From an uncultured Bacilli bacterium (GTDB lineage: Bacteria > Bacillota_I > Bacilli_A > RF39 > UBA660), in the NCBI GenBank assembly GCA_934102255.1, contig CAKOSN010000001.1:41459-105458 (forward strand): 64,000 bases of DNA, written 5' to 3'. Positions 9,001-15,000 of the stretch are shown here, in pieces. How positions within the stretch are numbered: position 1 is the stretch's first letter; each line of letters starts with the position of its first letter. A program made the position numbers.

Positions 9001-12000
9001 CTGATTTTGCAGCACTGCTAATTGTACTTCCGGCAGTACCAAGAGCTTGGAACCCGCCTGCTTCAGCAAAGGCATTTCCGAATCCAAGTTTAAAGCCAGA
9101 ACTATCAAATCCAGGCAATAGATCCTTAATTAATTTAGGTAATTGTTTCAAGAACGCAAATACTCCTACAATAAATGCTGCTTGTGCCAATAATTTAGTA
9201 ACTGCACCAACAGTCTTTCCACAACTAACCGTACTCATATCACTAAATATCCATGGTCTTAAGTATTTAATTGCATAAAAAGCGAATGACATCGCAATAA
9301 TTCTCGTAAATACTTCTATAAAACAAGAAGTTGTTTTCTTTAGCCAAGCATCAAAAACTTTTTTTTGATTAGGTAGCACTAACGTTAATATTGGAAGTGG
9401 CGCTATTAGTTGTAGATAGGCAAGTTTTACTGCTCTTACACCCATATCTATTACAAAGCCGAGTATTACATATGCACAAAAGGCTCCTGCAATCGTTGAT
9501 ATTAAAAATAAATATCCCAATTTTCCACTATCTATGCTGTCATCAAAGTCACCTAAGGCCTCACTAACAGACTTATTTCCAAGTTCTATATCACTAAAAG
9601 CCATAGATAAATTATAGCTACTATCATTATCAGATACTATACTTTTTGCTTCTGCTTCCCAATTAGACTCTCCGTTTTCATCTACGGTAACATTGTCTTC
9701 ATTTCCTTTAATATAATAGAAACTTTTAAATAAATATAATGACATTTGTGCTCCAACTTTAGAACGAGCATCATCATCTTCAACCACATTGTTTTCTAAG
9801 AAAAATTTTGGAATAACATTGTTACATAAAACTCTTGATTGAAATTCATAAGCATAGTCAAATATTGTTGGTACAACTGCTATTCCTATAATAGCCAATG
9901 TAATATTTTTTATAATACCAGTAAACGACTTGTTTTTATCTTTTGAGGCATTTTCTGGATTGATTATGGCATTAAGTAACGTGTATGCAACTAAAAATAG
10001 TGATACAACTCCAATTAAAATGTAAATTCTATTTGCTAAATTAACCATATCTTGATTTTCAAAAACTCTTATTTCACTAATAAAATTGAATACTTCGTAG
10101 CAATAAGATATAATCGCATAAATTATCCCATCTAATGCTAAAAAAATGGTTCTTATAATTTTCATGAATAAGCCAAAGAAATCTAAATCAGTTAAATATT
10201 GAAGCATTGTTTTTAATATTAACATATTCTAACCTCCCTACTTACAATCCACACGTACCGTATACATTTATCAACTGCAAAATTTTATCTAATAAAGGTG
10301 GAAAAATAAACAATATCAATGCATATATGATTCTTTTGGAAGTAGTTTTCAAAAATTTAGAAAGAGCATCTTTATCATTGCTTGTAACCGCTTTTGTTAA
10401 ATCCATGACTGATAAGGCTATAACCAATACAGGTCCTAAAAATTGCATAAAATTTAGGATTTTATGTAACATATATGCCAAAGATTTTTTATCGGTTATA
10501 CTGCCAAAAATACCCACGCATCTTTCATCAACAGTGCCTCCTGGATTATCTGTACCCTGATCATCATCATTATTATTCTGATTGTTATTATTATTGTTAT
10601 TATTAGAACCATTGTAAGTTGATGCACTTTCATCAACGGCAGCATCAGGGTATAAATCTAATGTAATATTATATTTTACTTTTCCAAAGCCAATCACAAA
10701 GGAGCGAGTGCTTGATTCGCAAGTAAAATTAAACGTTCTCTTTTCAGTTGGAACTTTTTTTACTAAAAGATTTCCGAAATTATCATTATTCGTTTGTAAT
10801 CCCTTTACTTCTAAATATTCACTTGCACTCCCAAGATTACAACTAAATGATGGAGCAAATTCCATTACACCATTTTTCTCGTAAACTGTTTGGGTACGGG
10901 TTGCCCCTTTAGTAATAATATAATTTCTATTAACTTCTCTTGTTTTTGCATTAACAACATTCACACTCAATAAAGTTAACATAATTATAAACAGAGAATT
11001 AAATATAATATTCTTTTTTTTCATAAAGTACCTCTTACCCCAAGATTATAACATAAAAAAACTAATATTTAAATAAAATATTAGTTTCAATATTAATTAG
11101 TTTTAGAACAGAATTTGCTAGAACCATTGCCACCTAAAACATAATCCCAACAGCATCTCCAACCTTTAGCATCTACTGCTTGACCATTAACAGTTGTATC
11201 ACCGCTACTATTTTGTTCAGTTGCTGCAACAGCATCTAATACAACTCCAACGATTGAAGGTATGAAGAATATTAAGATTGCTGCAACGCAACGCATCGCA
11301 AATGACTTTAAATTCTTAGTTACTTCATCTGGTTTACTCGCTACGACTGATTTACCTACGTCTAACATACCAAATACGATTAATAATAGAGGAATAACAA
11401 TCTTAAAGATAGTTACAACGTACCCTACTAATCTTAATAAAGGTGCTAAGTTACCACAAACGTCAACTTGACTCATAAACATCTCCTCATTTCTCTAAAT
11501 AAATATTACAATAAAATATATACATTGTCAAGAAAATTACTCGTCTTTAACAATGCCAAATAACTTACCAACTGGCTTTTTAGCTCCACCGGTTGGGGTT
11601 TGTTTATCAAAGCCCATTTTATATAATAAGTTATTAAGAATAGGATTTCTTTCTTTCTTATCATCTAAAGGAGGAATAGATTCAAATACTTTACAACGTG
11701 ATTCATATTCAAAATCTTTTATATCTTTATCCGATAATAAGCATTTATTTAATACTATTTTATAGTTTTTCATCTTCGTTAGAACCATTCTATCGGCTCT
11801 AATTAGTTTATTTAACTTAATAGTACTAGGTTCAATTAAATGTAATACTTCACTAATTGATGCTACTTTAGGTGATTCATTTATATCAACTAAAATAATA
11901 TCATAAGTATTATTAGGATTCTTAATAACAGAATCTAATTCACTAGTAGTTATACTACGCATATCTTGATCATTAAAATACATAAAATCATTTTTATCAA

Positions 12001-15000
12001 CTTCGATAGCCAAGGTTTTATAATTATTTTCTAATTGTTTTTTTAACATATAAGTTAAGGTAGTAGCCCCAGCGTGTTCAGTTAAGTTTTTAATGGCTAT
12101 TACTCTACTTCCCATAAATATATGATTAATAGAATTATTTAAAAAGTTAGAATTAATATTACCCGGTTCTAAGTTAACATTCATATCAGCATTAGGATTA
12201 CCTCCTAACATATGATACCTAGCAACATCTTTATAGGTATTAGGGTTATCTATTAAATACATTACTGAATCAATATTTCGGGTAAAATTATATATTCCCA
12301 TTGAAACTAATTCTGAAAGATATGTGGGCGAGTTAACTTCTTTGGAATCATCAAGAAGTAATATAACTTTGTTCATATCTAAACCAAAAGATAATTTTTG
12401 AATATTGTTGATATCTTTATAGTTTTTTACAGCCGTTATATCGAGTATCATCTTATTAAAGAAGAAGTTTTGAAAGTTACTAACGATAACATCAGCATCA
12501 TATTCACCACGAACATTTTTTATTATATCTATAGGTAAGTTAGTTAACATTTCACTATAGCGATTAGAAATTATGACATTCATAAATTTTTCCTTTCTTT
12601 AATATTTATTTTGAATTAAATAAATAGGCGCTAACAATAGCATAAATATTTTAATACTAACACCACATGCGTCTGCTAGTATTGCAATCATATGTTGCAT
12701 CCATTTCAATAGTTGTACCATTGGCACCGAAATCTATTATATCCCCAATGACTGGTAAATTCAATGAAAAGAAGAGATTAACACTATAATAGCTTCTACC
12801 AGTATTTGGAGTATAATATCCAGTTGTTTTTTGAACGCAATAGTAGTATTTTCTTCCGTCTACTGCTTTTTCAAAAGTTTCATTGCTAGTGCTGTCAAGG
12901 GTTTTTGCACCATAACTATCCGTTGGACAGTGTCCTTTAGCATTATAATTATTTGACTTTAAATAATTATTTATTACACCTATTGCTCCTGTTGGGCCTT
13001 CGGTCATTCCTTCTTTTCTTTCAATAATACTTAAAATATCATTTTTAGCTTTAAATACTTTGTAATAACTTACTGATACTGTTAAGTAAGAAACAAATAT
13101 TAAAATGAAAATAATAATGATTTGAAATTCCCAGGTTGCTCCAATCGATTCTTTCATCTACAACTACCATCTCCATATTCTTTAGGACAATAAATCATTC
13201 TGGTACTCCCTTTTAAATTAAAGTTAAATATGGTGTTTATAATAGGCATATCAACAGAGAAAAATACTTTTATATCATAGTAGGCAGCTCTAGGAAACTG
13301 ACCTGAAGATTCGTTAATGTCATGTCTAGCAATACAAATCATTCCCTTTTGACCATTAGTTTGTAGTCCTTCTTTTTGTGTTATAGCAAAATCCGTTATA
13401 GAAGAGATATCTTCATTATCACATTTACCACTTGAACGATAACCAACTTCACTCATGTAGTCTTGAATTTCGGTAACAGCTTGAGAATTTATACCACCGT
13501 TTTTCTGTATAATACTTATTACTTGGTTTTTGACGTTATATGCTTTTGTTTGATTTAGGGTAATGCATAAATAACCCGTAAATACTAAAATAAAAAGTAT
13601 TACAATATTGGTTAAACTTAAAATTCCAACAGATTCCTTCATATTCTTTTATCCCTTCCAAACACAATCAAATGTCTTATTTTTATCCTTATACCAACAT
13701 CTAACTGTAGTACAGCCGTCTGGTTCTGTACATTTTTCACATACAGCGGCAGCACATTTAGTATTAGCAGTCATATTATTTTTTATAGTAGGCCATATCA
13801 AGGTATAGAAAAAAGCCATAAGTGCTGCTACGGCCATAACTACTACTACAGTTAAATTTAGTTCACCACTGGCTTCTTTCATCTTTTTATTCTCCTATTT
13901 TATTATCTTATTGTTGACCATTTGTTTTGCTGTTATTTGGACAAGTAATAGTTTCTACTGTATCAGATGTTGGATCTGCTTGATAATCACATTTACACGT
14001 ACTTCCAGTACAATTACAATTAATTGCTGAAGAACATTTTGTACTATTTAAAATGTTTGTTTTAATAGCTGGCCAAATGAATGCATAGAAGAATGCGGCT
14101 ACTGCAGCAATTGCTACTACTGTTACAACAGTCATATTTAATTCACCAGTTGCTTCTTTCATATATTATTCCTCCTATCTTATAAGAATATTATATAATT
14201 TTTTTATTTCATACGCAAGTAGTTGTAATTATTTTTTTATTTAAGAAAAAAATCAACTACATATTTACTTTTAAATAATAGCTGATTTTTAAAATTATTT
14301 TTAACATTTTTGCAGTTTTTTTGCAAATTTGCAATTAATATTATCAAATCTTGCAATTATTTTTATTTTATTATGTTCTCTTTTTTCAAAATAAAACTTT
14401 CAAGTTTGATAATCTTATTTTACTATCACTAGAAAGTAAATTCAAATAAAATATTATTGCGGATTTACTGCATTTTTTTTTGCAGATTTTGCAGATTTTT
14501 TGCAGATTTTTTGCAGATTAGATTTATTTATCATCTTTTTTCCAAAGTGAGCCACTTTTAATTCCAATGTTGGCTATCATTCCTTCATTTTTTAACTTGG
14601 TTAACATATATCTAACCTTGTTATCAAGCTCTTTTTCTTCCTTGCCTTCAAGTAACGGATACATAAATTTGTTTATTTTCTTTCTCGTGAATCCATTGTT
14701 GTTTTTAATAAATTCATATAGCATTTTTTCAGCTTCTGTCAAATTAAGCTCTTGTTCCGTATCTTCTAAATCATTATTATAAACAACTTCTGCTCTAAAA
14801 ATATCATCATCATAGAATACTGGCTCTTTTCCACTATAAATTTTACTGTATTTAGTTATCTTCTTTATACCGGAGCCAAATTCTTCTGCTAAGCCTATTT
14901 CTTTAAAAACGCTGGCAATCTTAGGATTTTTCGGATATGACGCATAATTATTTAAGTCTATATATCCTATTGTTTTTGGCTTATTGGCATTTTCAGTAAT

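Follow-up and report, generated by a model that had tools for sequence, protein, structure and literature searches.

A putative filament module of a divergent Tad-type pilus beside type IV secretion genes in the chromosomes of uncultured gut Bacilli

Introduction

What are four small membrane proteins with nearly the same first six residues doing at the head of a run of type IV secretion system (T4SS) genes? The question is raised by a 64-kb stretch of DNA from an uncultured Bacilli bacterium (contig CAKOSN010000001.1, positions 41,459 to 105,458; hereafter the window), in which these four genes are followed by a fifth for a TadZ/CpaE-like protein and then by genes of the Gram-positive VirB4/VirD4 kind. 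The five genes probably encode the pilins and the organiser of a Tad-type (type IVc-like) pilus, a highly divergent one that is conserved chromosomally in uncultured gut Bacilli. A preliminary description of this DNA had proposed a Tad/Flp-type pilin set, and part of that proposal stands: Tad motor genes adjoin the pilin-like genes in relatives and the fifth protein has a TadZ-like architecture. Membership of the Pfam families Flp and TadE, and a supposed processing motif read as G-ATWEF, did not hold. The case for a Tad system draws on comparative genomics rather than on family hidden Markov models (HMMs), because the pilin HMMs fail while a motor set lies next to the pilin genes in related genomes.

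Four pilin-like proteins with a shared start

Five consecutive open reading frames (ORFs) on the minus strand, running from 14162 down to 11537, encode proteins of 84, 77, 162, 166 and 348 amino acids (aa). Gene 1 (13908 to 14162) encodes a small pilin-like protein, the candidate major subunit, with a leader-like MKEATG start and one hydrophobic helix; an AGGAGG ribosome-binding site lies 8 nt 5' of its start. Gene 2 (13649 to 13882) encodes a second small pilin-like protein and is a paralogue of gene 1, with 52% identity between the two products (E=7e-16) and six cysteines in the tail of each. Genes 3 (13154 to 13642, a protein of TadE/TadF size) and 4 (12657 to 13157) encode larger pilin-like proteins, both candidate minor pilins, which share 29% identity (E=7e-22), and gene 5 (11537 to 12583) encodes the TadZ/CpaE-like protein. 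From gene 1 to gene 5 the spacing is 25 nt, 6 nt, a 4-nt overlap and 73 nt.

Each of the first four proteins carries a single hydrophobic segment directly after its start motif. A six-frame translation of the whole window contains the pattern MKE[AS]xG four times, where composition alone predicts 0.012 occurrences; because all four lie exactly at the starts of genes 1 to 4, the shared start is not a chance pattern. The ORFs, their common start and helix, and the Cys-rich tails of the two small proteins are thus as the preliminary description gave them.

The same arrangement recurs in related loci that we fetched for comparison (numbered with the prefix L; the window's own clade, L003-L021, comprises those whose 348-aa protein is at least 68% identical to that of the window). 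Where a fetched locus spans the region, usually four and sometimes three or fewer pilin-like genes precede the 348-aa gene, and every one of them begins with a match to M-[KR]-[EQ]-[AST]-x-G that leads into a hydrophobic helix. A nearly invariant MKEATGELNMTV(V/I)TVVAIAA… start marks the first small gene, and its first ~30 residues are almost constant across nearly all the related loci listed. In families that were not selected on position 6, Gly6 occurs in 191 of 212 sequences; among gene 2 orthologues it is present in 69 of 73 and Glu7 in 71 of 73. The residues that follow Gly6 are E-L-N-M-T. The gene 1 family comprises 1878 clusters, none of them named. Gene 3 is found in all related loci.

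The resemblance of one larger protein to the G-x4-EF processing motif of Flp/TadE does not extend beyond close relatives, since position 10 is Glu in just 8 of 139 orthologues and paralogues and is mostly Leu, Ile or Val; on this alignment it is a coincidence of the window's clade. An AlphaFold2 (AF2) model of the 166-aa protein (predicted local distance difference test score, pLDDT, 78.6; 14-sequence alignment) shows an N-terminal helix of 44 residues together with a short helix and a sheet of five strands. The model is compatible with a pilin fold and is not proof of one, and a Foldseek search with it against the PDB returned nothing significant. The archaeal type IV pilin N-terminal model gives weak matches in 6 of 140 pilin-like family members, the best at E=0.003.

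The ratio of nonsynonymous to synonymous substitution rates (dN/dS) was calculated for the window's genes against six relatives, of which L015, L012, L005 and L003 are the closest and L017 and L019 more distant, at synonymous divergence (dS) of ~0.6-2.3. For the TadZ-like gene it is 0.03-0.05 against the closest relatives and 0.14-0.17 against the more distant ones; the corresponding ranges are 0.08-0.20 and 0.18-0.56 for genes 2-4 (for gene 2 alone, 0.10-0.20 and 0.18-0.45) and 0.46-0.64 and 0.28-0.49 for gene 1. With pilin-gene values of 0.08-0.64 overall in a clade that has no adjacent motor, the pilin genes are under purifying selection and are not decaying. Gene 1 combines a conserved helix with a fast-evolving tail, which is the pattern of exposed major pilins.

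A TadZ/CpaE-like fifth protein

The AF2 model of the 348-aa protein (pLDDT 75) comprises an N-terminal five-stranded alpha/beta domain, a disordered linker at residues 117-157 and a C-terminal alpha/beta domain. At the Walker-A position the family reads T-(E/D)-x-A-G-A-T-(T/S), with both lysines gone, and the acidic switch-I/Walker-B residues E194, D199 and D233 are invariant or nearly so. Since the modelled two-domain fold goes together with a lysine-less P-loop that keeps its acidic residues, a TadZ/CpaE architecture is supported, in which a receiver-like domain would be followed by a ParA/MinD-like one. The earlier description of a pseudo-receiver joined to a ParA domain with a degenerate P-loop is borne out by the model and by the Walker-A sequence. 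A profile of the family searched against 1.84 billion representatives (50%) recovered only 548 proteins at E<=0.001, all of the same family, which shows how far it has diverged, and homologues of the protein fill more than 6,800 database clusters, all unnamed.

Tad motor genes adjoin the module in relatives

In most of the relatives whose 348-aa protein is at most 62% identical to the window's, a set of genes for DUF5411, CpaB, an ATPase and two platform-like proteins lies directly 5' of the pilin genes. The first of these is a fifth pilin-like gene with an MKESYWGYW… start, and its product matches Pfam DUF5411 in 11 of 11 members, with E down to 7e-60. One or two CpaB/RcpC-like genes are found per locus (PF16976 is matched by 16 of 16, the best at 4.6e-7, below the gathering score). 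The secretion ATPase matches Pfam T2SSE at 3e-27, and its best PDB match is CpaF (1.5e-18), followed by archaeal FlaI and then VirB11. Two polytopic proteins of ~297 and ~262 aa follow the ATPase in the position of TadB and TadC, and their topology (transmembrane (TM) segments, a cytoplasmic domain of ~130 residues and C-terminal TM segments) fits that pair; an hhalign comparison of the two families with each other gives E=0.012. In content, this set with the pilin and TadZ-like genes is that of a Tad locus. The order in these relatives is therefore ATPase, two platform proteins, small pilins, larger pilins and, last, the TadZ-like gene. The part of it that corresponds to tadA-tadB-tadC-flp-tadE-tadF mirrors monoderm tad operons, in which tadZ comes first.

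The window lacks this set: scans by Pfam, tblastn and motif found no TadA/CpaF, TadB/C or prepilin peptidase in it, as the preliminary description had noted. DUF5411, CpaB, TadA, TadB and TadC are likewise missing from the 10 kb 5' of every locus of the window's clade. Set against the relatives, this gene content indicates that the absence of the motor is specific to the clade and not system-wide. At least ten metagenome contigs (L093-L097, L101, L125, L132, L158 and L162) show the converse, carrying DUF5411-CpaB-TadA-TadB-TadC with no pilin or TadZ-like gene in at least 8 kb 3' of the motor block. Because such split contigs exist, the motor and filament modules can be encoded apart, and a distal motor in the window's genome, whose sequence was read to ~10 kb past the window, is plausible and probably present.

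A search for shared flanking genes that might link the split TadABC contigs to the window's species found just a repeat-protein similarity of 36-38%. In L007, a locus that is 100% identical to the window's left end over the compared genes, an 823-aa repeat protein is encoded 3' of VirD4 (16960-19431 of L007, which stands for the window's strain), and homologues at this level of identity lie a few kb 3' of TadC in the split motor contigs L094-L097 and L103. It may be a shared accessory or adhesin gene. An Rce1-like CPBP protease near one locus was considered as a candidate leader peptidase and rejected because it occurs near just 4 loci.

The adjoining type IV secretion genes

All genes of the secretion set lie on the minus strand. 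The first, at 11093 to 11482, encodes a 129-aa VirB2-like membrane protein of the T4SS pilin family (Pfam T4SS_pilin E=1.3e-4, below the gathering score), and this gene is kept after the TadZ-like gene in most loci. It is followed by a gene (10242 to 11024) for a secreted 260-aa protein in which a poly-Asn linker leads to a C-terminal VirB2-like membrane domain; the T4SS_pilin protein of relatives matches 10496-10266 by tblastn, within this gene, so that its C-terminus repeats the VirB2-like domain. A polytopic VirB6-like protein of 809 aa (7796 to 10225) matches the NCBIfam models MMCAP2_0566/Mbov_0396 at E=1e-12 and 3e-8, below their cut-off; these are conjugal-transfer TM families of the VirB6 type from Mycoplasma integrative conjugative elements (ICEs). 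Between genomes that share 97-98% identity in the VirB4 ATPase, identity in the VirB6-like protein is only 37-52%; some of this protein changes very quickly and probably lies exposed.

A small membrane protein of 110 aa with 2-3 TM segments (7449 to 7781) lies directly 5' of VirB4 in all loci and is putatively VirB3, by position. VirB4 itself (5133 to 7552) is encoded by two genes, an N-domain of 210 aa (6920-7552) and an ATPase of 595 aa (5133-6920), which match NCBIfam VirB4_plasma at E=9e-14 and 3e-106. The start codon of the second overlaps the stop of the first, and related genomes have the same split (187-191 + 595 aa), so this is a conserved arrangement and not a frameshift. Next come a cell-wall hydrolase of 896 aa with SpoIID and M23 domains (2374 to 5064; Pfam E=7e-25 and 2e-9) and two proteins of unknown function (242 and 252 aa, 904 to 2392) that have C-terminal TM segments and no Pfam match and are kept before VirD4 in relatives. 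The VirD4 coupling protein is represented by its N-terminal 284 codons (2 to 853), the gene continuing beyond the window edge; this part is 100% identical to L007, whose 932-aa protein matches T4SS-DNA_transf/TrwB/TraG-D_C. The VirB2/3/4/6-like and VirD4-like genes named in the preliminary description are therefore present, the VirB6-like and VirB2-like assignments at scores below curated cut-offs and VirB3 by position. Taken together, these matches place VirB4, VirD4, a VirB6-like protein and a hydrolase, a Gram-positive VirB4-type T4SS set, in one cluster.

In the 54-bp gap between the TadZ-like and VirB2-like genes there is a promoter-like match, TTGACA-17-TAATAT (11503-11531, minus strand). 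In view of this match the T4SS genes may be transcribed from a promoter of their own, and the single transcription unit of the preliminary description is putative. The region is AT-rich, and shuffled sequence contains promoter-like sites no less often.

A recurrent linkage at a chromosomal site

In related loci the genes after the module are usually VirB2/B6/B3/B4-like, with a hydrolase gene and VirD4 next. The arrangement was counted in the 48 loci with adequate flanks. Motor genes upstream and T4SS genes (VirB4/VirB6) downstream both adjoin the module in 23 of these, T4SS genes only in 12 (two of which, L030 and L034, have TadB/TadC farther upstream), motor genes only in 10, and neither in 3. 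Genes with the MKExxG start recur upstream of T4SS operons, and as far as gene order can tell the linkage of the pilin/TadZ module to a Gram-positive VirB4/VirD4 system is real and recurrent. The module is not simply a set of T4SS parts, since in L019, on a contig of 1.26 Mb, the five genes stand alone between glycosyltransferase genes and priA/fmt. In one sub-clade (L061-L064, L069 and L090/L091) the Tad motor, pilin and TadZ-like genes are followed by genes for a 713-aa protein (a weak Peptidase_C39_2 match), a 256-aa protein, VirD4 and a rhodanese. No VirB4, VirB6, VirB3 or VirB2-like gene was found in the loci of this sub-clade, which therefore combine a Tad system with a coupling protein. 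Variants of this kind (L061-L064, L069, L090) are a hint that the Tad machine may itself be a partner of the coupling protein.

The 348-aa protein occurs in at least 564 GTDB species (one genome scanned per species). All of these genomes are metagenome-assembled genomes titled uncultured Bacilli, Tenericutes, Ca. Coprovivens or Ca. Ventrenecus, and their sources are the guts of humans, chickens, rabbits, rodents and ruminants. We take this lineage to be the order RF39; NCBI lists Ca. Coprovivens and Ca. Ventrenecus just as Bacilli or Bacteria incertae sedis.

Upstream of gene 1 in the window, a 360-bp gap separates the pilin genes from a Schlafen/AlbA_2 gene, beyond which lie trmD, rimM, tmk, leuS and other housekeeping genes; the window is chromosomal, because such genes flank the locus. 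The same trmD/146-aa flank abuts the pilin genes in six further species-level genomes. GC content does not step at the locus, and the window is free of tRNA genes. A megablast search with the region turned up nothing among plasmids and phages, no relative of the TadZ-like protein occurs in 72,556 PLSDB plasmids (tblastn) or in IMG/VR, and the window's VirB4 is only ~28% identical to any plasmid VirB4. Genes of the locus have dS values of 0.6-1.1, comparable in magnitude with the 0.55-2.6 of trmD and the 146-aa gene. A Pfam scan of a few ORFs, covering ~24 kb of the locus, recognised no relaxase or integrase in the window or in the 10 kb past VirD4, nor in the 7 kb that follow the complete VirD4 gene of L007, so that what marks an ICE (relaxase and integrase together, at variable sites) was not seen within ~24 kb of the locus. 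Given the lack of plasmid and viral relatives, the shared chromosomal site in several species and the flank-like dS, the system looks to be a chromosomal one, passed on for the most part by vertical descent. What was first proposed as a pilin set grafted onto a conjugation system is not a mobile-element graft seen once but a chromosomal locus present across the lineage.

Several features of the junction deserve mention in their own right. The Schlafen gene (14524-15969, minus strand; 481 aa, Schlafen/AlbA_2 + HATPase_c_4) separates the pilin genes from the 146-aa flank gene in the window and in L011 and L014, where it is inserted at a junction that lacks it in L005, L012, L013, L015 and L020. 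The non-coding region between it and gene 1 (14163 to 14523) is the probable promoter region of the pilin genes, read on the minus strand. It holds, at 14478-14517 and 14308-14327, four exact tandem copies of TCTGCAAAA (period 9-11) and, nearer gene 1, two one-mismatch copies; the four, just past the Schlafen gene, are the only exact copies in the window. The array may be a regulator-binding array of the pilin promoter region. Promoter-like matches are present in the region 5' of gene 1 and are not enriched over shuffles. In L011 (CAKORQ010000064.1), compared with the window at 11537-17857, the TadZ-like gene has a dS of 0.08 and the adjoining trmD one of 1.07, a contrast that indicates recombination across the locus boundary or else a chimeric contig. 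Far from the locus, at 57715-61654 on the plus strand, are genes for a Listeria-Bacteroides-repeat protein and two paralogues with an ALK/LTK glycine-rich domain (E=6e-35 and 1e-28), which is unusual for bacteria.

Evidence against a Tad-type filament, and rival explanations

A number of results weigh against reading the five genes as a Tad-type filament module that acts with the T4SS. Searches of the window's five proteins with Pfam and NCBIfam gave noise only, with no Flp match at E<=1, and among 140 diverse members of the pilin-like families none matches Flp (PF04964) or TadE (PF07811) at E<=0.1, although the preliminary description had looked to these two models. Among 61 members of the 348-aa family, with identity down to 29%, none has a Pfam ParA, CbiA or TadZ domain, and none of 32 platform-like proteins matches T2SSF; PDB profile searches with the TadZ-like family and with the two platform-like families were all empty. 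The leader is atypical, having six residues, Glu at +1 and no E5/Y6, and orthologues of gene 4 often carry Ser or Ala in place of Gly6. Such substitutions were considered as evidence against a processing site and dropped, Gly6 being present in ~90% of the wider sample; they remain a caveat for the fourth gene only. The window contains no CpaF/TadA, TadB/TadC or CpaB/RcpC gene, nor is there an ATPase or platform gene in the next 10 kb. A scan for the A24 peptidase motif (a membrane protein of the G.GD.K type) found none in the window or in 89 fetched loci, and Peptidase_A24 of Pfam has no match in the window ORFs scanned. In some genomes the pilin module or the T4SS set occurs with its counterpart missing from the neighbourhood, the window has a promoter-like site between the two, and the argument that filament and T4SS would cooperate is one of synteny.

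The rival that survives best is that the module builds a short DNA-uptake (competence) pseudopilus, with VirB4/VirD4 serving as an import or chromosomal-exchange machine like Helicobacter ComB or archaeal Ced. A role in DNA uptake or chromosomal exchange is a serious rival, if a rather improbable one. It would suit a chromosomal locus that keeps the same trmD-side site in several species, has flank-like dS and is spread through a reduced-genome lineage at the breadth given above. It would also suit the lack of plasmid and viral relatives and of any relaxase or integrase domain found by Pfam in the 10 kb past VirD4, and the recombination breakpoint at the edge of the locus in L011. In Micrococcus, Tad/Flp pili take part in DNA uptake. 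A role of this kind in some bacteria is also reported in work cited by PMC11680825 (its ref. 73). Set against this are the coupling protein at the locus and the loci themselves, which showed no genes of the ComEC/ComEA type. Export systems typically have VirD4, and uptake systems of the ComB type do without it.

Alternatively, the products of genes 1 to 4 could be bitopic parts of a Gram-positive T4SS channel, either VirB8/ConB/PrgL/TcpC-like or small proteins of the Tcp/Prg type, with no filament at all and with a shared start that reflects paralogy or a membrane-insertion signal only. The pilin-like genes do head a one-strand block of T4SS genes with short gaps, the 162- and 166-aa proteins match a single-domain VirB8-like protein in size and topology, no pilus motor is nearby in the window's genome and no pilin HMM matches. 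An NTF2-like ectodomain of the VirB8/ConB/PrgL/TcpC kind nevertheless finds no support in the gene 4 model or in the Foldseek search against the PDB, which leaves the VirB8/ConB-like alternative raised in the preliminary description unsupported, and we consider this explanation distinctly improbable.

That the pilin genes of the window's clade are leftovers of a Tad system that lost its motor, decaying or repurposed in the membrane, accords with the absence of DUF5411, CpaB and TadA-C from the window and from 10 kb 5' in every clade locus, but is very improbable given that the five genes are intact in every clade genome, that dN/dS is well below 1, down to the lowest values for the TadZ-like gene against the closest relatives, and that split motor loci occur in related contigs.

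A proposed mechanism

If the five genes do form a Tad-type filament module, genes 1 and 2 would supply short major-type pilins in which an invariant N-terminal helix carries a variable Cys-rich tail, and genes 3 and 4 the larger minor pilins. Gene 5 would encode a TadZ/CpaE-like organiser with the task of recruiting the machine or positioning it. The six-residue M-K/R-E-A/S-x-G leader would be cut after Gly6 by a prepilin peptidase of the A24 type whose gene would lie elsewhere, and a CpaF-like ATPase on two TadB/TadC-like platform proteins, together with the CpaB-like and DUF5411 proteins, would then extract and polymerise the pilins. In the window's genome, the motor genes would lie elsewhere in the chromosome, as in other split loci. 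The fibre could cross the wall beside the VirB4/VirB6/VirD4 channel and, by analogy with the IncI thin pilus, bring or hold cells together for the transfer of DNA or protein.

Comparison with known systems

The Tad/Flp (type IVc) systems, such as tad of A. actinomycetemcomitans, cpa of Caulobacter and tad of Bifidobacterium breve, resemble this locus in the CpaF-type ATPase, platform-like pair and CpaB/RcpC-like protein of its relatives, and in a TadZ/CpaE-like protein with an atypical P-loop. Both also have several short pilins in which a conserved start that includes Gly leads into a hydrophobic helix, with the genes for small ones first and then those of TadE/F size; a further likeness is a peptidase gene outside the locus, which Tad models allow (PMC6668835). 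The locus differs from them in that nothing in it matches a Flp, TadE, T2SSF or TadZ model; in a six-residue leader with Glu at +1 and no G/xxxxEY; in the Cys-rich tails of its small pilins and the loss of both P-loop lysines; and in a TadZ-like gene placed after the pilins and not before the ATPase. It is also tied to T4SS genes, and the window's genome has no motor beside it; Tad systems spread over several loci are described as very rare (PMC6668835).

Closer parallels come from other gut bacteria. DUF5411 has been found beside CpaF/PilC in gut Firmicutes, with a system predicted in Roseburia, Ruminococcus and Eubacterium (PMC9523054), and in a Tad-like cluster of TANB77, TadB and TadC are fused and the pilin-like proteins number seven, all different (PMC11680825). 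These clusters also come from uncultured or gut lineages, combine CpaB, CpaE-like, TadA and TadB/C proteins, and include a run of small single-TM pilin-like proteins missed by pilin models, with DUF5411 as a marker; they differ in that neither VirB4/VirD4 neighbours nor an MKExxG start has been reported for them.

The IncI1 plasmid R64 offers a precedent for a pilus that works alongside conjugation. Its thin pilus is of type IVb, built from PilS/PilV with its own ATPase, platform and peptidase, and serves mating-pair formation rather than DNA passage. The likeness is that type IV filament genes are encoded with a conjugative T4SS; the difference is that the thin pilus belongs to a Gram-negative plasmid and is unrelated in sequence, whereas the present locus is chromosomal and its host monoderm.

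With the Gram-positive T4SSs (Con of ICEBs1, Prg of pCF10, Tcp of pCW3 and the Mycoplasma ICE with CDS16/CDS17) the locus shares VirB4, a VirB6-like protein, a protein in the VirB3 position, a hydrolase and VirD4, and the window's VirB4 is closest to the Mycoplasma-ICE type. The known systems rely on adhesins and lack genes for a type IV filament, whereas here VirB4 is split, no relaxase or integrase was found nearby and one chromosomal site is kept across species. In the literature searched, an incomplete library covering RF39 with T4SS/VirB4, Tad with VirB4 and Firmicutes, and CpaF with VirD4, we found neither a description of this locus nor one of any monoderm VirB4/VirD4 system linked with a Tad-type pilin set.

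Significance

The locus is spread over hundreds of species in a gut lineage that is abundant and uncultured and has small genomes. Along with earlier findings, it speaks for Tad-like pili in gut Firmicutes which current HMMs miss, its pilins, platform proteins and TadZ-like protein all being annotated as hypothetical. It also amounts to a natural experiment, in which motor, filament and T4SS modules occur together, apart or in part among genomes. A bolder proposal, that the Tad-type filament and VirB4/VirD4 form one composite apparatus and a vertically inherited core trait of this reduced-genome lineage rather than the cargo of a mobile element, is unlikely on present results; if true, the composite would be the first pilus-assisted system for DNA transfer (or for exchange or uptake) in a monoderm bacterium. 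On this reading, the window's clade may handle its pilins with no motor alongside. Gram-positive conjugation is thought to be pilus-free, and how wall-bearing monoderms find and hold a partner is poorly understood. Because this locus links a divergent, putatively Tad-type filament set to a VirB4/VirD4 system, it makes the question of partner contact testable.

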